A DNA stretch of 64,000 nucleotides. Source: a phage. This document shows, piece by piece, positions 29,721 through 38,990 of the stretch (positions are counted from its first letter, which is position 1; each line of letters starts with the position of its first letter). The notes beneath the pieces are model-generated. The model was given only the letters and a program-made list of their open reading frames with translations, did not search any database and was not told where the DNA came from. Where the stretch lies: the sequence record PZ386970.1. One strand, written 5' to 3'. A program made the position numbers and the translations under genes.

Positions 29721-30035
29721 TTATTCTTTAGGGAAGTTTTTAGAGTATGCATCATAAAGTTTATTACCAATACGGCGGAAGACTTTAGCTGCAAAACGGT
29801 TTTCAGGGTTTTTAATCATGATTTGCATCATGTAAGTTCCTGCATCCGAAAGAGCTTCTTCATAGTACCCATTAATTTCTTTAAGAGTCCTACGTTTACC
29901 GCCAGGACCGTCAACAGTAATTTTCCATTTACCTGTAGAAGTGCGGCTCGGTGGCTCAACTTGTTCAATCCAAATATAACCACCTTCAACGCGTTGGTTG
30001 GCGGATTCTGCAATAAATTCTTTATACGTTTTCAT
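29721..30035 (-). CDS. internal protein-like (capsid-targeting N-terminus)
   Basis: 104 aa starting MKTYKEFIAE. Confidence 0.55.
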   Translation of the reverse strand: MKTYKEFIAESANQRVEGGYIWIEQVEPPSRTSTGKWKITVDGPGGKRRTLKEINGYYEEALSDAGTYMMQIMIKNPENRFAAKVFRRIGNKLYDAYSKNFPKE

Positions 30036-30098: not shown

Positions 30099-30359
30099 TT
30101 AAGCTTTACCGCCAGAAATAATTCCGAAGTTGTTAAAATCGTATCCAATATCGTCAACATCTACTTTAGGACTTACTACAACATAAGCAATTTCACTACG
30201 TTTTGCATAGGTGTTGATTTCTTTACCATCGCCACCCAAGAAAGAATACCCATTACGTTTTAATGAGCCAAAGTCTTCCGCATCACCAATGAAAGCTTTA
30301 ACTTTAAATTTATGACCTTTGGCATCTGCTTCAGTGATAAATTCTTGATACATTTTCAT
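30099..30359 (-). CDS. internal protein-like (IPII-like, capsid-targeting N-terminus)
   Basis: 86 aa starting MKMYQEFITE. Confidence 0.55.
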   Translation of the reverse strand: MKMYQEFITEADAKGHKFKVKAFIGDAEDFGSLKRNGYSFLGGDGKEINTYAKRSEIAYVVVSPKVDVDDIGYDFNNFGIISGGKA

Positions 30360-30837: not shown

Positions 30838-31119
30838 CTATTTTTCTGAAGCGCCTGAAATATATTTTTCAAGACGTTGTTTCATCAGCGAGCCGTTCTT
30901 AGCGATTTCTTCCGGTTTATCGCACATACGCAACAGTGCTTCAAGCTTAACGATATCACTGGTGCGCTCAAATTTGCGAGTATCTATCTTACTAGCAAGT
31001 TCAGAAATACGTGCTAATAGACTTTCGGCTTCGACCAAAGCTGCACCTAGCTTAGTTGCAAATGTGTCAGTAGCTTCGTTAAGAATAGATTCTGATAAAA
31101 ATTCACTATATGTTTTCAT
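30838..31119 (-). CDS. internal protein-like (capsid-targeting N-terminus)
   Basis: Start moved to [10 protein letters not shown]; helical 93 aa protein. Confidence 0.5.
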
Positions 31120-31604
31120 ATATACGCTTTCCAAGTTCCTGTTTTAAATGTTGAGATTACGCGTTTCGCGCGATTGGGTGTCTGACGATACCATTTAGAT
31201 TGGGCTAGATTTACTGCCGCCTCGTCCCAACGTTTCTGTTGAAGCATACGAAGAGAATTAGTAAAACCGGCGACGCCTGCTACACCCATTTGGAAGACCA
31301 TATTGACCAGTGCACATCGACGAACCGCATCTAAAGAATCATACACCGGTTTAAGTTTAGCATTACCCAAGATTCCGCGAACGGCTTTATCAACGTCTTC
31401 ATTAAATAGCTTTTCAGCCTCATCAAGGGTAATTGTACCATTGCATTTACGACCGATCATTCTGTCAAGTTCAGCTTTAGCTACGGCTAAAGACGGGTTC
31501 TTTGTTACTAAATGGCCTATGCCAATCGTCCAAAAGCCTTCAGTGTCTTTGTATAAAGTCAGTCTAAGACCTTCGTCATTACGAAGCATTTCAAATATAT
31601 TCAT
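31116..31604 (-). CDS. e: endolysin (T4 lysozyme, gene e)
   Basis: [32 protein letters not shown]... matches T4 lysozyme as recalled, including the catalytic Glu and Asp. Confidence 0.9.
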
Positions 31605-32097: not shown

Positions 32098-32338
32098 CTC
32101 GGTCCCATGATTTGGCCATTAATTCAGACATAAATTCTTCAATGCGCGTTTCTTTAGATGGACTTTCACTATTAGAGACCGCAAGTTTGTAATCTGCAAT
32201 AGGACAGAACATATCAAGGTCCATATTAAGGTCGTCTTTGATTTTTTCTTCTGACACATCTTTATCGTATGTGTACAGATAACTATCACATGATTCTGAT
32301 TTAATGTAAATTGCTATACTCATCTCAAATTCCTGCAT
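32087..32338 (-). CDS. hypothetical acidic protein
   Basis: 83 aa ORF. Confidence 0.35.
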   Translation of the reverse strand: MQEFEMSIAIYIKSESCDSYLYTYDKDVSEEKIKDDLNMDLDMFCPIADYKLAVSNSESPSKETRIEEFMSELMAKSWDRDDE

Positions 32339-32667
32339 TCAGTAATAAAACGTTCAACTTCGTTATTCTTGGCTTTTATCTTGTCTTTATGTTCTTGTAA
32401 ACTACTTTTAATAAGATTAATAATGATGGCGGCGGTACCGCCGCCAATGATGCCACCAACAACACTTATGATACTAGATGCTAATAAGATAGCAATAATA
32501 TCAACAAAACCGAAAGAACTCACCTTAGTACTAAAAAACCATACCGACGGTACAAATATAATCCATCCTGTTATCCATTGGCACTTATTGAAAAACTTTT
32601 CAAGCTCAGCTTGAGTTGTTCGTATTACTTCATCGATAGGTTGATATCCATTAATGTATCTATTCAT
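32320..32667 (-). CDS. membrane protein, FIKECR-tail family member
   Basis: 115 aa; two hydrophobic helices; C-terminus NNEVERFITECRNLR. Confidence 0.45.
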   Translation of the reverse strand: MNRYINGYQPIDEVIRTTQAELEKFFNKCQWITGWIIFVPSVWFFSTKVSSFGFVDIIAILLASSIISVVGGIIGGGTAAIIINLIKSSLQEHKDKIKAKNNEVERFITECRNLR

Positions 32668-32668
32668 A

Positions 32669-32974
32669 TTATTTTCCTCGACATTCTTTAATGAAATTTT
32701 CTAGATTGGTAGATTCAATAGCTTTTTTACGAGCTTCTGCATGTTCTTCTTCAGACAATTTACATTTATAATTAACCCAGACATTATGGTCAAAACTAGT
32801 CGTGGCATATAATAACAATGCTCCAACGAATAACAAAAACGGCGATAAGAATACAAAACCAGGAACACCATCCATATCGTAAGCCTTTTGTAATACTGCA
32901 ACAGAAAGGGCTGCGTAAAAAGGTGATGCAAATATTGTTAAAAGACCAATTCGGTTGGTTTCGCCTAATTTCAT
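32669..32974 (-). CDS. membrane protein, FIKECR-tail family member
   Basis: 101 aa; two hydrophobic helices; C-terminus NLENFIKECRGK. Confidence 0.45.
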   Translation of the reverse strand: MKLGETNRIGLLTIFASPFYAALSVAVLQKAYDMDGVPGFVFLSPFLLFVGALLLYATTSFDHNVWVNYKCKLSEEEHAEARKKAIESTNLENFIKECRGK

Positions 32975-33001
32975 AATATTCTCCTCATGTTTAATAGGAC
33001 T

Positions 33002-33031
33002 ACTATAACATAGTCCTATAATTGTGTAAAC
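33002..33031 (-). promoter_or_regulatory. T4-type early promoter inside palindrome
   Basis: Minus strand GTTTAC-18 nt-TATAGT; palindrome GGACTACTATAACATAGTCC. Confidence 0.45.
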
Positions 33032-33043
33032 AGTTTTGTGAAG

Positions 33044-34000
33044 TTATTTGAAAGGTTTTACCATATGGAAATTTTGTTTGAAACGTTTGACGTAATCATT
33101 TTTGCCGAGCTTATGATACATAGCCACTACTTCATAATAGTTCTCGTATGCGTACTCACGGAACCAACCGGAGGTGATGCTTGTACAGACTTTTTCTAAT
33201 GCCATCATGAAACTGGCTTCAGGGTTAATTTTAAAGTCATTAGGAATCTGAGAACGTTCAAGAGCTAGTACACATGCTTCTTCGTATACACCGGCCAATT
33301 TGACCATTTCTGGTAATGATTCGAACTTCTCGCGTGAGGTCATGACTTCAGAACCATCTTTCATGTAAAATGTATAAGCCGGACGGTCTGTTAGTGCAAT
33401 GGCTTCATGAATAGTATCATGGTCATATGTGTAGATGTCATCTTTAAAGAATGCGCTTTTAGAAGTGTCAAGAACTGGGTGAGCATAGTTCAAGGTTTCT
33501 TTCTGGCGTTTCAGCATAATTTCAGTAAGTTCATCATTCAGTGTAACACCTTTACCGCGAAGATACTGAATATGGTTCATAGTCTTTAAAAAGAATGGAT
33601 TATTTTTCTTGAAACGATGAGACATCTTAATTGCAAGACATATCTCAGGAGTTGCCCAGTAAAACCCGTTCAAACGGTCTTTAGTCAAATTTTTCTTGGC
33701 GTATTTTAAAAGGTCATAAGAAGACGTGAAATCTTCAGGAGTGAGTTCACCGACTAATTCACGGACATTAGTGATTGCCGGAACGATGTATGCTTCAAAA
33801 TGAGTTTCGCGTCCATTATGGAAGCATTTGAAAACTTGGACATCAGGGTTATCTTGGTGAACATATACGCCCATCATTTGATTTTTGAATGCATTCCAAG
33901 AACCTTGGTCCGCAATAAAGTCCCAGTCACTATTTTTGATAGCGCTAGAATCAATAAGACCGTGATAGTGAAGTGCACGAGAACCAATAACTAACATCAT
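33044..34000 (-). CDS. hypothetical protein
   Basis: 318 aa soluble ORF; no confident motif. Confidence 0.45.
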   Translation of the reverse strand: MMLVIGSRALHYHGLIDSSAIKNSDWDFIADQGSWNAFKNQMMGVYVHQDNPDVQVFKCFHNGRETHFEAYIVPAITNVRELVGELTPEDFTSSYDLLKYAKKNLTKDRLNGFYWATPEICLAIKMSHRFKKNNPFFLKTMNHIQYLRGKGVTLNDELTEIMLKRQKETLNYAHPVLDTSKSAFFKDDIYTYDHDTIHEAIALTDRPAYTFYMKDGSEVMTSREKFESLPEMVKLAGVYEEACVLALERSQIPNDFKINPEASFMMALEKVCTSITSGWFREYAYENYYEVVAMYHKLGKNDYVKRFKQNFHMVKPFK

Positions 34001-34025
34001 AATAATTTCCTCGAATTTAGATTAC

Positions 34026-34277
34026 TTAAATTTCACGACATGCGATATTATATTCATCCCAGAGGTCATCGTGTGAAGCCTCTACCAATGGAACGATTGT
34101 ACCGTTTATGTCTTCATTATAAGGGCAAATTGTACAGTGCGCATCTTCGAATCGGATGCCTTTGTGTTCAGATTTTTTATAACGCATATCGAATATCTTT
34201 GCAAACTTTTCACGAGTAATGGTTTTACCAACCACTTTGGTTCCGATACTTTCGTAATAAATCATTGTGGACTCCAT
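34026..34277 (-). CDS. hypothetical protein
   Basis: 83 aa ORF. Confidence 0.4.
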   Translation of the reverse strand: MESTMIYYESIGTKVVGKTITREKFAKIFDMRYKKSEHKGIRFEDAHCTICPYNEDINGTIVPLVEASHDDLWDEYNIACREI

Positions 34278-34293
34278 TTAATTTGATAGGACT

Positions 34294-34323
34294 ACTATAA
34301 CATAGCCCTATCTTGTTGTAAAC
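34294..34323 (-). promoter_or_regulatory. T4-type early promoter inside palindrome
   Basis: Minus strand GTTTAC-18 nt-TATAGT. Confidence 0.45.
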
Positions 34324-34327
34324 TGTT

Positions 34328-34525
34328 TTAGCAAGAATAACTAGATGATACCCAGCCTTGAACAGTAATACTATTGTGGGATAATGAGATCGCGTCCTGG
34401 AGATTCAGACCTGCGTTATCTTCAATCCATAATGTAACTTCTTCGCGTTCTTCTGTTGCAATTTGGAACAGGTTTTCCAGAGCAGCTACTGCCGTACGTA
34501 CAGCACAATCTAATTCACGAGACAT
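34328..34525 (-). CDS. small protein, GWVxSSxxC-tail family member
   Basis: 65 aa; C-terminus QGWVSSSYSC. Confidence 0.45.
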   Translation of the reverse strand: MSRELDCAVRTAVAALENLFQIATEEREEVTLWIEDNAGLNLQDAISLSHNSITVQGWVSSSYSC

Positions 34526-34534
34526 AATATTTCC

Positions 34535-34807
34535 TTAGCAAGTGTGAGAAGATGCAACCCAACCGCCATCTTCAAGGCTCAAGTTGTAGTCGTATTGGTG
34601 AACGTCGGCCCATTCAGGATTACCATGTTTAGTATGATGTTCAAGGTCGGCTTTAAGATAACCTGGTGAATGATAGGTTCCGCCCATACCATATGCCGGA
34701 TACAAATTAAACGTGGTGTTTTGTTTATCAGCAATTTCTTTGGCTGCCTCAATAGCTGCATAGATTTTTGCTACAGCTTCAGCCAGTTCAGTTTGTTCTT
34801 TAGACAT
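34535..34807 (-). CDS. small protein, GWVxSSxxC-tail family member
   Basis: 90 aa; C-terminus GGWVASSHTC. Confidence 0.45.
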   Translation of the reverse strand: MSKEQTELAEAVAKIYAAIEAAKEIADKQNTTFNLYPAYGMGGTYHSPGYLKADLEHHTKHGNPEWADVHQYDYNLSLEDGGWVASSHTC

Positions 34808-34816
34808 AATGATTCC

Positions 34817-35122
34817 TTAGCACAATGCAGAAGACGAAACCCAAGCACCTTCAGTAATAACGTAACCATTACCTTCACGCTTAACATCGCCACCATTATT
34901 TTCAATTTCATCTTTCATCCACTGGGATACGATTTCACCCTTAGGATAATAAGTACGACCGCTACCATAATCACCTACAGAAAATGATACGGCATATTGG
35001 TCTGCGATCTTTGTTGCTTCTTCTTCGATACGTTCAGCTTGATTCAGAAGTTTATAAATTGCATCTGAAGCAGATTTGGCATCATTAAACTCTGGTACTT
35101 TAATTTCAATAATCTTACTCAT
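34817..35122 (-). CDS. small protein, GWVxSSxxC-tail family member
   Basis: 101 aa; C-terminus GAWVSSSALC. Confidence 0.45.
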   Translation of the reverse strand: MSKIIEIKVPEFNDAKSASDAIYKLLNQAERIEEEATKIADQYAVSFSVGDYGSGRTYYPKGEIVSQWMKDEIENNGGDVKREGNGYVITEGAWVSSSALC

Positions 35123-35478
35123 TTTCTACATTCCTTAATAAAGTTTTCGATTGTTTCATTTTCACGTTTAGCTAGGAGTTCATTATAACTAATCATTTGA
35201 GAAGCGTAAACCTTTTTATTTTTCTTGTTATGGTTTATAAAATCGTAGTAAAAATAGACTACAGTACAAAATGATGCGATGGATGCAAAGGCTTGGGTAT
35301 ACCGTAAGTCCTGCCATTGGTCTGTGAATCCACTGGTATTCCCTATAAATCCTAACACAACTCCGTCAATAAGAAATCCAACTAATCCAAAGGCAAATCC
35401 CATGCCAATACTCATAATAAAAATTAGAATGTTCTCACCAAGAGAAGGCCATACGGTTAAGAGTTGAGGCTTTTGCAT
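35119..35478 (-). CDS. membrane protein, FIKECR-tail family member
   Basis: 119 aa; hydrophobic helices; C-terminus ETIENFIKECRK. Confidence 0.45.
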   Translation of the reverse strand: MQKPQLLTVWPSLGENILIFIMSIGMGFAFGLVGFLIDGVVLGFIGNTSGFTDQWQDLRYTQAFASIASFCTVVYFYYDFINHNKKNKKVYASQMISYNELLAKRENETIENFIKECRK

Positions 35479-35882
35479 CTTATTTCCTTAACGAATTCCA
35501 TAGCTTCTTCATATTCATATTTTTTAACAGCCTCGTCATATTGAGCTCTTGCTTTTGCACATTGAATTTTCCATTCGCGTACTCGAGCTCTGTGATGACG
35601 GCCTTGGTACCAATATCCTGCCCAATTAATAGGCATTAATAAAAACGGTACAATAAGTGGTGCGACGAACATTAATGAAAACGCTGCATCAGACGATATA
35701 ACTTTATTGGAATCTAAAACAGCTCCTATAATCATAAAGATTAAAAATGCTAAAGCTAAAATAGGACCAAACAACACTTCATTAGGAATTAATTTACGTT
35801 TGTATTCGTACGCCCAAGGCTTAATTGGCATGTATAGGGTTGGCTTTGACATATTCTCTACATTCCATAATAAATTGCTCAA
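35457..35882 (-). CDS. membrane protein, FIKECR-tail-related (start uncertain)
   Basis: Two transmembrane helices; C-terminal tail EEAMEFVKEIRCK; true start probably an internal Met (MPIKPW...). Confidence 0.4.
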   Translation of the reverse strand: MSNLLWNVENMSKPTLYMPIKPWAYEYKRKLIPNEVLFGPILALAFLIFMIIGAVLDSNKVISSDAAFSLMFVAPLIVPFLLMPINWAGYWYQGRHHRARVREWKIQCAKARAQYDEAVKKYEYEEAMEFVKEIRCKSLNS

Positions 35883-36423
35883 GGATTAAATTGTTAGTGA
35901 AATTAGGACTAACAACCATGGTTTCATAAAGCGCATCAATAGCACTTAAAGCATCAACTCTTTTAAGCAAAGGCTTGCCTTCATACATAGTTTCAGAATC
36001 AACGATTAAAGTGAAGTAGTATTTTTTATTATCGACTAGAACTTCTGTATCGATATAAAACATATTAGACCTCAGAAGTTTATCTCTAAAGCCTACATAA
36101 TCATCTGAACGTTCACTGATATATTCCCATTCGGTGTTTAAACAACAAACAGACCATGTAGGAGCAACGAAATCAGTGAATCTAATATCATGGTCTGCAA
36201 CTAGTTTAGCAATAGCTCCGATATCATGAATCATAATACCTGGGGCTAATAAAGATTTTCTACTATGGCTAGCCGTTTTCTCAGTAGTCTCATAAGAAGA
36301 CGACCAGTACCATTTACGTCCAGTTGCAACATATCGTAATGAATCAACTAAAGACGTAGGTGGATTTACCTTATCTCGGAACTCTTCGAACATTGAGTCA
36401 ATATCATTATTTTGGTTTCGCAT
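35821..36423 (-). CDS. soluble protein with FIMECR tail
   Basis: About 200 aa starting MRNQNNDIDS...; C-terminus LEQFIMECREYVKANPIHAN. Confidence 0.45.
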   Translation of the reverse strand: MRNQNNDIDSMFEEFRDKVNPPTSLVDSLRYVATGRKWYWSSSYETTEKTASHSRKSLLAPGIMIHDIGAIAKLVADHDIRFTDFVAPTWSVCCLNTEWEYISERSDDYVGFRDKLLRSNMFYIDTEVLVDNKKYYFTLIVDSETMYEGKPLLKRVDALSAIDALYETMVVSPNFTNNLILEQFIMECREYVKANPIHAN

Positions 36424-36440
36424 GTTAACTCCTTTATTAT

Positions 36441-36464
36441 CCAAAAGGAGGACCGGAGTCCTCC
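36441..36464 (-). terminator. rho-independent terminator
   Basis: Minus strand GGAGGAC-UCCG-GUCCUCC followed by UUUUGG, immediately after the stop at 36473. Confidence 0.55.
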
Positions 36465-36472
36465 GTATTATT

Positions 36473-37066
36473 TTATTTCAAAGAGTTAATATATTCTTGT
36501 ACATCAGCAGAAGTGGTTTCGACACCGGCTGGAGTGCCATTGAACGTTTCAACACGAGTCAGAGTGTCTTCGATATCAACCTTAGTCAGTGCAGCGATTT
36601 CAATTACATCATCAGCCGTAGAGATACCAAGGGCATTGGCTGCTCGAGTTTCACGAATGTATTCGAGTTTGATTGCCAGGTTCTGACGAGCATCGTCAAG
36701 TTCAACCACCTTACGAGCAATTTCAATTCGCATAGCGGCATACCCGTCAGCTTTTGTATTAAGTTGTTCGGCAGTTCGACGATACAGAAGACCAAGCTTA
36801 GCATGCATGGTAACATCTTGTCCTTCAGCCAGGAGCTTACGAATTTCACGTTCCTTAGAAGCGGCTTGCTTGTTCTTTTCATTAACAAGTTCGCGAATAC
36901 GTTTTTCTTCATTAATAGATTTAACAGAAGCCGTTTTTAGTTCTTTGATTTGGGTAATCAACTTATCTGCAGCTGCGTTATACTGTTCTTCGACAGTCAG
37001 ATTTTTAGCCATAGCAGTACCCAGTTTAGTGCGGATAAATTCAACAAGTTTCTTCAGTGTGTTCAT
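36473..37066 (-). CDS. coiled-coil protein (possibly PspA/IM30-like)
   Basis: About 197 aa, predominantly helical with charged heptad-like segments; PspA resemblance is by composition and length only. Confidence 0.45.
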
Positions 37067-38363: not shown

Positions 38364-38990
38364 TTACTTACGAGTTTTTGCATACTGAGCAGCGTCAGCA
38401 GCCAAACGACCTGCTTGTCGAAGTTTTTCTTTAATCTCATCATGAAGTGGTTGAGTATACTTCAAACCTTCGATAGTCAAATAAAGACGATAAAGGTCTG
38501 GGGTATCAAGGTTGTTGATATGTTGACCATTACGAAGAATATTGAATTCACGAACGAGTGAAGATGTATCAGATTCAATATCACGAACAAGCGAAGATAG
38601 TTGTTTATATTTTTTTTCCAGGCTAGAAGTATCAAACTTAAGAGCAGGAGCTTTAGGAGTTGCTTTTACTTCCGGCTTAGGCTCAGGTTTTGCTACTGCT
38701 TTAGGGGTCGCAGGTTTAGGAATGGTAGGAGCAGGTTTTACTTTAGGCGAACCAGACTTAGCAGAAACACCACCACTAACAATATCTTTGAATGCTTTAG
38801 AAGCTCTATAATATTCTTTTTGGCTTGAAGTGTCGATACCGTACATGGCTTGAACGTTTTTGAAAAACTCTGTACTAGTTTTTGTACCAGAAATAGCATC
38901 GTAAGCAGCTTGCCATTTCTCTTTTGTCATACGTACACCGGCTTCGGTGATTACTTCCGTTTCGGCTAAAAATTCATTAAAAGTATACAT
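38364..38990 (-). CDS. internal protein-like with proline/lysine-rich repeat region
   Basis: 208 aa starting MYTFNEFLAE (capsid-targeting-like), with central KP/AP-rich low-complexity tract. Confidence 0.5.
   Translation of the reverse strand: MYTFNEFLAETEVITEAGVRMTKEKWQAAYDAISGTKTSTEFFKNVQAMYGIDTSSQKEYYRASKAFKDIVSGGVSAKSGSPKVKPAPTIPKPATPKAVAKPEPKPEVKATPKAPALKFDTSSLEKKYKQLSSLVRDIESDTSSLVREFNILRNGQHINNLDTPDLYRLYLTIEGLKYTQPLHDEIKEKLRQAGRLAADAAQYAKTRK

Follow-up and report, generated by a model that had tools for sequence, protein, structure and literature searches.

A shared C-terminal F-I-K-x-C-R tail on divergent membrane and soluble proteins of the e.2-e.6 region of T-even phages

Five small early genes in the region between e.6 and nudE of a T-even phage encode proteins that end in a near-identical tail with the core F-I-K-x-C-R, while the bodies in front of this tail cannot be related to one another. 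We analyzed these genes in a 64,000-nucleotide (nt) stretch of phage DNA (sequence record PZ386970.1), which we refer to as the window. The 5.2 kb around the tail genes are 95-96% identical to Mosigvirus genomes (e.g., PhAPEC2, mogra, and ESCO47), which identifies the window by sequence as that of a Mosigvirus-like T-even phage. Below we present evidence that the tail is real, that its amino acids are under selection, and that it recurs across the Tevenvirinae, and we propose that it may dock its carriers onto a common partner at the cytoplasmic membrane.

Results

Five genes of one cluster end in the same tail

Every gene at 30-39 kb of the window is carried on the minus strand, and the gene order is that of T4, namely denV, internal proteins, e (lysozyme), nudE, and then the e.2-e.8 region. 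The order e.6-e.5-e.4-e.3 ... e.2-nudE-e on one strand is the same in T4, mogra, and the window, in which about 2.1 kb of additional genes separate e.3 from e.2 and its neighbor. We designated the tail genes A (32320-32667), B (32669-32974), C (35119-35478), D (35457-35852), and E (35821-36423). The five open reading frames (ORFs) that a sequence-only reading of this DNA had singled out were all found on the minus strand with the C-termini it had quoted, although two of their starts required correction. Gene D most likely starts at the ATG at 35852 (MSKPTLYMP, compare MSKPSLYLP in T4 e.4) rather than at the TTG at 35882, and gene E at the ATG at 36423 (MRNQNND, with AAGGAG before it) rather than at the TTG at 36444.

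Based on sequence and synteny, genes A, C, D, and E are orthologous to T4 e.2-e.5 (UniProt Y06M-Y06P; PHROGs 2203, 2330, 2604, and 2607). Gene E encodes a soluble protein of 200 amino acids (aa), the ortholog of T4 e.5 (Pfam Phage_T4_Y06P; 48% identity, BLASTP E = 2e-66, synteny), with the tail core FIMECR at 35857-35874 followed by 11 residues (EYVKANPIHAN). Gene D, the T4 e.4 ortholog (131 aa, two transmembrane [TM] segments; Pfam Phage_T4_Y06O; 55% identity, BLASTP E = 3e-56, synteny), carries the variant FVKEIR (35478-35495), and the start codon of gene C sits within its tail codons (AGATGC). The product of gene C, the T4 e.3 ortholog (119 aa, 2-3 hydrophobic segments; phrog_2330; 35% identity, BLASTP E = 2e-23, synteny), has the core FIKECR (35125-35142) one residue short of its C-terminus, and the stop codon of this gene overlaps the downstream start (ATGA). 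The same core is found at 32678-32695 in gene B (101 aa, two TM segments; phrog_9798), which has no ortholog in T4 and was seen only in Mosigvirus records among the loci read. Gene A (115 aa, two TM segments), with the core FITECR at 32332-32349, is a homolog of intact e.2 (Pfam Phage_T4_Y06M, phrog_2203); it matches phrog_2203 (E = 2e-33) and aligns with intact e.2 homologs, covering the C-terminal two-thirds of e.2 only, so that the e.2 copy of the window lacks the N-terminal domain. The T4 proteins bear the same tails: e.3 ends in EFVIDCRKIK, e.4 in KFVKESRCKSQS, and e.5 in KFVKECREYVKA.

In a six-frame translation of the window, ORFs of at least 30 aa contain the pattern F[IV].[ED]CR four times, in every case at the C-terminal end of one of the five genes and within the last 20 residues; gene D, with the looser variant FVKEIRCK, falls outside this strict pattern. 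When the residues of the 187 ORFs of at least 50 aa were shuffled 2000 times, the mean number of motifs was 0.018 and the maximum was 1. The similarity of the tails, which the sequence-only reading had made dependent on a correction for composition, therefore withstands it (4 observed versus 0.018 expected). A hidden Markov model (HMM) of the tail was also run on the window and on the rest of a 96%-identical genome: the five ORFs alone scored 16-20 bits, and the next best hit was a 45-codon stop-to-stop ORF that is not annotated as a gene (9.4 bits). Taken together, the shared tail is real and far above chance.

The tail is conserved as an amino acid sequence

Since the tail codons always run into the ribosome-binding region of the following gene, a test was needed of whether the similarity originates in the protein or in the nucleic acid. 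Across paralogs and genera, the tail arginine is encoded by CGA, AGA, AGG, or CGT, and the codons for cysteine (TGT/TGC), phenylalanine (TTT/TTC), and isoleucine (ATT/ATC) vary as well. The distance from the motif to the downstream ATG ranges from 5 to 16 nt, and the Shine-Dalgarno sequence coincides with the K-E codons of certain genes and with those for C-R-N, R-G-K, or E-E of others; in JS10 it lies past the motif. Thus, the synonymous-site conservation and fixed spacing of an RNA-level coupling element were not found. Because the codons, the spacing to the next start, and the position of the Shine-Dalgarno sequence all vary, these comparisons indicate that the tail is kept by selection on its amino acids, with codon choice in the motif simply being exploited for translational coupling. 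The tail is also the best-conserved segment of each orthologous family; in the e.2 family, five of the 12 invariant columns are the F, I, E, C, and R of the tail.

The tail is a common module on otherwise unrelatable proteins

The five proteins had been described as a paralogous family, a claim that is supported for the C-terminal module only. In profile-profile comparisons, similarity was confined to the C-terminal 19-41 residues (e.3 versus e.4, 41 columns, E = 7e-6; e.3 versus e.2, 19 columns, E = 1e-5), and no significant similarity was detected between e.4 and e.2. Pairwise BLASTP among the carriers likewise aligned 9-15 tail residues and nothing more. Furthermore, the five fall into separate Pfam and PHROGs families (Pfam Phage_T4_Y06M for e.2, Y06O for e.4, and Y06P for e.5; phrog 2203, 9798, 2330, 2604, and 2607); the Pfam labels are precomputed, and the families are of unknown function. 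Because the similarity stops outside the tail, we restrict the term paralogous to the C-terminal module, which at the sequence level is shared by bodies, including their membrane parts, that cannot otherwise be related.

Scans of the five proteins against Pfam, NCBIfam, PHROGs, and PADLOC revealed no shared or informative domain, and the tail matched no model in these libraries as a shared domain. Nor does it belong to a characterized T4 protein, in line with the sequence-only reading, since the T4 orthologs e.2-e.5 are listed as being of unknown function; their families, which are kept separate, bear no annotation beyond hypothetical or predicted membrane protein, and none of the models searched captures the common tail. 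A word-indexed search with the tail across 5.8 billion proteins yielded fragments of these same families and nothing else. An exhaustive search of 1.84 billion representatives with the tail HMM gave 9 matches at E <= 1e-3, all from the same five phage families and all at the extreme C-terminus, using a profile too specific to E. coli phages to reach the diverged tails that we later saw by reading loci. Scanning IMG/VR with e.5 identified only 6 loci, and literature searches on e.2-e.6, Y06M-P, and FIKECR turned up gene tables only. The genes are already known as T4 ORFs, while the tail, its spread, and the link to a Vipp1/PspA-like protein described below are absent from the libraries and literature searched.

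The tail is predicted to be a cytoplasmic amphipathic helix

Hydropathy analysis agreed with the earlier assignment of four membrane carriers and one soluble carrier, with roughly two TM segments predicted for each of A-D and none for E. Because a K/R-rich segment follows the last TM segment, the positive-inside rule applied to the hydropathy profile assigns the tail a cytoplasmic location, which provides a predicted answer to the question of its sidedness raised by the sequence-only reading. The linker between the last TM segment and the tail spans about 14 to 40 residues. Within the tail, residues -3, 0, +1, and +4 form a hydrophobic stripe (L/I-F-I/V-C, at i, i+3, i+4, and i+7), and the helical hydrophobic moment of the 11-residue segment around the motif was 0.34-0.79 in all but one of 28 tails. 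The AlphaFold2 (AF2) model of E places the tail within a helix (residues 179-194) in a model that is poor as a whole (predicted local distance difference test [pLDDT] 58). Taken together, these predictions suggest that the tail is cytoplasmic, helical, and amphipathic, forming the last two turns of a helix. A profile search of PDB sequences with E gave no match, and the Foldseek matches of its model to small alarmone synthetases were dismissed as not meaningful (E = 0.012, TM-score about 0.2, poor model).

Tail carriers are found throughout the Tevenvirinae

The set of carriers is much larger than the five proteins to which it had been limited and includes several small soluble proteins. When the e.6-to-nudE cluster was read in nine Tevenvirinae genera and two metagenomic lineages, 3-6 tail carriers were found per genome. 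They were present in Tequatrovirus, Mosigvirus, Dhakavirus, Gaprivervirus, Kanagawavirus, a Klebsiella phage lineage, Jiaodavirus, Winklervirus, Tegunavirus, and the two metagenomic lineages. Most carriers are two-TM proteins, the others being of the soluble e.5 type or small soluble proteins of 93-113 aa. Their consensus is hydrophobic-x-x-[FW]-[IV]-K-x-C-[RK] followed by 0-13 residues, with a median of three residues to the C-terminus. Among 36 tails from the nine genera, position -3 is hydrophobic in 32, the aromatic residue is F in 32 and W in 4, and the next residue is I in 26, V in 9, and L in 1. Lysine follows in 23 tails and glutamate (at +3) in 19; the cysteine is present in 28 (I, V, M, or S elsewhere), and the final position is R in 33 and K in 3.

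The acidic residue is always kept in the E. coli-phage genera but not elsewhere. In Kanagawavirus it is replaced by Q, N, G, or M in all four tails, and the glutamate is missing from most Klebsiella-phage tails. In the most divergent lineage (locus L023), all five tandem carriers have F-A/T-K/R-x-[LMV]-K or Y-L-K-T-L-R. Thus, tails on non-homologous carriers differ in concert across whole lineages in Kanagawavirus and L023. At first the acidic residue seemed to vary together with the genus of the host, but the Klebsiella phages, in which its state is mixed, weaken this view.

Tail genes follow e.6 in 10 of the 11 Tevenvirinae lineages examined, the exception being VR7, which lacks e.6. An e.5-like protein with F-[IV]-x-x-C also follows e.6 in an Aeromonas phage and in a Pseudotevenvirus.

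The adjacent gene e.6 probably encodes a PspA/Vipp1-like protein

Directly upstream of gene E lies the e.6 ortholog (36473-37066, minus strand; 197 aa). With 88% identity between Mosigvirus and T4 and 1125 phage records, e.6 is far better conserved than the tail proteins. Its AF2 model (pLDDT 76) consists of an N-terminal amphipathic helix and a long helical hairpin, the latter with pLDDT above 90. In a Foldseek comparison of this model with the PDB, Vipp1 entries took the first eight ranks (E from 3e-4, probability 1.00); the ESCRT-III protein CdvB2 came 12th and PspA 27th (E = 0.32). The e.6 profile is also co-linear with Vipp1 residues 6-142, at an E value of about 1. No relationship was detected by phmmer against the PDB, Pfam scans of 30 homologs gave no PspA_IM30 match, and an hhalign comparison with E. 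coli PspA was not significant. The structural model therefore suggests that e.6 is probably PspA/Vipp1-like. None of the e.6 records seen carries a PspA/Vipp1 annotation; some read "host specificity protein."

Rearrangements of e.2 and chimeric tail genes

Gene A is only 115 aa long because of an 830-nt deletion relative to phage mogra, with its junction at 32660/32661. Lost with it are a 228-aa gene and codons 1-48 of e.2, and the start of the 228-aa gene is now fused in frame to e.2 codon 49. The 228-aa gene is conserved and also adjoins e.6 in an Aeromonas phage. In the reference T4 genome (NC_000866), e.2 (record positions 67469-67960) differs from that of other Tequatroviruses by the loss of one nucleotide in an A-run and the gain of one 77 nt further on, a -1/+1 frameshift pair that truncates it to 102 aa. 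The part encoding its tail (…NNFITECRKLK) persists as an unannotated remnant ORF overlapping the nudE start, while other Tequatroviruses have an intact 162-aa e.2 with the C-terminus NNFITECRKLK.

Database proteins that resemble deletion chimeras (P0004 of Escherichia phage OLB35, and P0006), for example an e.3 N-terminus with an e.4 tail, suggest at the sequence level that recombination between tail-bearing genes does occur. Within the part of gene A that encodes its second TM segment (the GGIIGGGTAA stretch) lies a perfect GC-rich palindrome, TGGCGGCGGTACCGCCGCCA (32427-32446, minus strand), which was flagged as terminator-like by our scan and is annotated as a repeat_region in mogra.

Other features of the cluster

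Just upstream of gene B there is an early-type promoter-like site (33002-33030, minus strand; TTTACA, a 17-nt spacer, and TATAGT with TG). A hairpin, TAGGACTA...TAGTCCTA, overlaps this site, the two together lying within 33000-33040, and we take this arrangement to resemble the promoter-early stem-loops that have been put forward as mediators of cassette shuffling among T4-type phages.

A second family defined by its C-terminus comprises three small, acidic, soluble proteins encoded on the minus strand at 34328-34525, 34535-34807, and 34817-35122 (phrog_899 and phrog_4882). Their Ser-rich, Cys-terminal ends follow G(A/G)WV(S/A)SSxxC, examples being VWISSSEMC, GWVSSSMEC, and IWQPSSC, and, with Tequatrovirus and Jiaodavirus as exceptions, each related genus read has 2 to 5 copies beside its tail genes. 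A 318-aa protein (33044-34000, minus strand) that matches Pfam DUF7277 (E = 1e-27) and DUF7275 (E = 6e-78) is kept in the cluster of all Tevenvirinae genera examined, again with the exception of Tequatrovirus and Jiaodavirus. Outside the tail genes, four minus-strand genes (29721-30035, 30099-30359, 30838-31134, and 38364-38990) encode proteins with leaders like the capsid-targeting sequence, and these are the polymorphic internal head protein set of this phage.

Discussion

Since the tail is kept at the amino acid level on unrelated membrane and soluble bodies, changes in concert within lineages, and is confined to one gene cluster, we propose with moderate confidence that it is a common docking peptide for a single partner on the inner surface of the cytoplasmic membrane, e.6, whose gene heads the cluster, being the most economical candidate. 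The tail would bring every carrier to this partner; the two-TM carriers would serve as PspB/PspC- or LiaI-type membrane adaptors of e.6, and the soluble carriers (e.5 and the 93-113-aa proteins) would be cargo recruited alongside them. By analogy with PspB/PspC-PspA and LiaI-LiaH, the co-location of e.6 with the tail genes and its suggestive fold make it the leading candidate. Like PspB, PspC, and LiaI, most carriers are small inner-membrane proteins with a predicted cytoplasmic C-terminal helix, and their genes lie beside one with a PspA/Vipp1-like predicted fold. However, none of the five proteins has a Pfam or NCBIfam match to those families, several tail carriers are soluble, and membership of e.6 in the PspA family is only suggested by modeling. 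The sequence-only reading had left the choice between a shared partner and a sorting or processing signal; a shared partner or signal is still the most reasonable reading, while processing is disfavored, as the acidic residue needed for an I-x-E protease site is lost in several genera.

Several observations weigh against a docking peptide for e.6. VR7 has the tail proteins e.2, e.3, and e.4, yet no e.6 or e.5 at the locus, and recent tandem duplication alone might account for the concerted changes in L023. In the window, a terminator-like GC hairpin with a T-run (36447-36464, minus strand) splits e.6 from e.5. Finally, T4 e.2-e.6, listed as being of unknown function, received the label "Not Fit" when knockdown was screened across the genome (PMC11879866, supplementary files 8 and 15). 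We read this label as meaning that their knockdown has no detectable fitness effect in the laboratory, in which case any function would be conditional.

It is also conceivable, if doubtful, that the tails bind each other, with their amphipathic helices bundling the co-translated e.2-e.5 proteins into a hetero-oligomeric membrane complex that recruits soluble e.5 and needs no separate partner. Overlapping or directly adjoining genes with translational coupling, as seen here, are usual for subunits of a complex, each genome has at least three carriers, the i, i+3, i+4, i+7 hydrophobic face would suit such contacts, and the concerted lineage changes fit mutual co-evolution equally well. However, an 8-10-residue helix end is short for a stable bundle, and carrier sets vary freely between genera (JS10 lacks e.4, VR7 lacks e.5, and additional carriers occur elsewhere), which argues against an obligate stoichiometric complex. 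A membrane-targeting amphipathic helix in the cytoplasmic leaflet, which would pin down the soluble carriers and the ends of the two-TM carriers, strikes us as unlikely. Like the MinD and FtsA anchors, the tail is predicted to form a short amphipathic helix at the C-terminus and contains an F/W-I/L pair and basic residues (at +2, +5, and +6), its hydrophobic moment is comparable to theirs, some of its carriers are soluble, and tryptophan variants occur (NWIKGCRK and TWIRSCRK). Whereas an anchor of this type would be expected to conserve hydrophobicity and positive charge and to lack acidic residues, the tail preserves residue identity (Cys in 28, Arg in 33, and Phe in 32 of 36 tails), contains two acidic residues in E. 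coli phages, where the net charge over the last 15 residues is 0 to +3 and several tails are at 0, and sits on two-TM proteins that are already held in the membrane, for which an anchor would be superfluous.

We consider it improbable that the tail is a protease or processing tag, either a host-protease degron or an I/V-x-E prohead protease site, that times removal or maturation. Degrons are typically located at the extreme C-terminus, the T4 prohead protease cleaves according to an I/L-x-E rule, and the F-I-K-E of E. coli-phage tails resembles both this rule and the E-F-I-x-E of the internal-protein leaders encoded at 29721-30035 and 30099-30359. Nevertheless, the loss of the glutamate in Kanagawavirus and most Klebsiella-phage tails speaks against cleavage, the internal-protein leaders reach only 3-4 bits against the tail HMM, which is noise level, and the capsid-targeting sequence is N-terminal and directs proteins into proheads, an implausible destination for two-TM proteins. 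The tail also bears no resemblance, to our knowledge, to LAA-type ClpX tags. The least credible explanation, largely refuted by the codon analysis, is that the tail is a by-product of an RNA or DNA element at the gene junctions, whether a ribosome-binding site with translational coupling or a recombination junction for cassette shuffling. The overlap of each tail with the translation-initiation region of the following gene, a K-E often encoded by AAGGAA at a suitable distance from the next ATG, and the location in a region known to be plastic, where an early promoter and a hairpin precede B, would all fit such an element. It does not account for synonymous sites that are free to vary, with four Arg codons from two codon families, or for the shifting spacing and Shine-Dalgarno position described above. 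Moreover, paralogous tails in one genome differ at about 5 of 24 nt, which argues against recent gene conversion. CaaX-like lipidation was rejected because the cysteine lies 1-13 residues from the end without an aliphatic pattern, and we know of no bacterial CaaX-type lipidation enzyme.

Returning to the docking peptide, its nearest precedent is the T4 capsid-targeting sequence (MKTYQEFIAE). Both are short terminal peptides on unrelated, fast-evolving proteins of the same plastic region, and both contain an F-I-x-E core. The prohead protease cleaves the capsid-targeting sequence, which is N-terminal and sends soluble proteins into the head, whereas the tail is C-terminal, is found mostly on membrane proteins, and conserves Cys-Arg. 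Identity of the two was rejected given the opposite terminus, the noise-level leader scores against the tail HMM, and the absence of the glutamate in several genera. By this analogy, the tail may be a terminal address or docking peptide of diverse phage accessory proteins, and it would be a second such T4 peptide on fast-evolving accessory proteins after the capsid-targeting sequence.

T4 is the best-studied large lytic phage, yet its e.2-e.6 genes are listed with neither a function nor a knockdown phenotype. The tail unites four or five of these orphan genes, together with their counterparts in nine related genera, as one functional unit, and its 8-10-residue peptide offers a directly testable handle. 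If the partner is indeed the Vipp1/PspA-like e.6, the cluster would be a phage-encoded version of a bacterial membrane-stress system. More speculatively, and building on the structural model of e.6, T-even phages may carry a hitherto unrecognized membrane module in which an e.6 core of the membrane-remodeling PspA/Vipp1/ESCRT-III superfamily is joined by variable two-TM and soluble proteins that plug in through their C-terminal F-I-K-x-C-R, and which would protect or remodel the host inner membrane early in infection, for example against envelope stress, superinfection, or membrane-acting defense systems.

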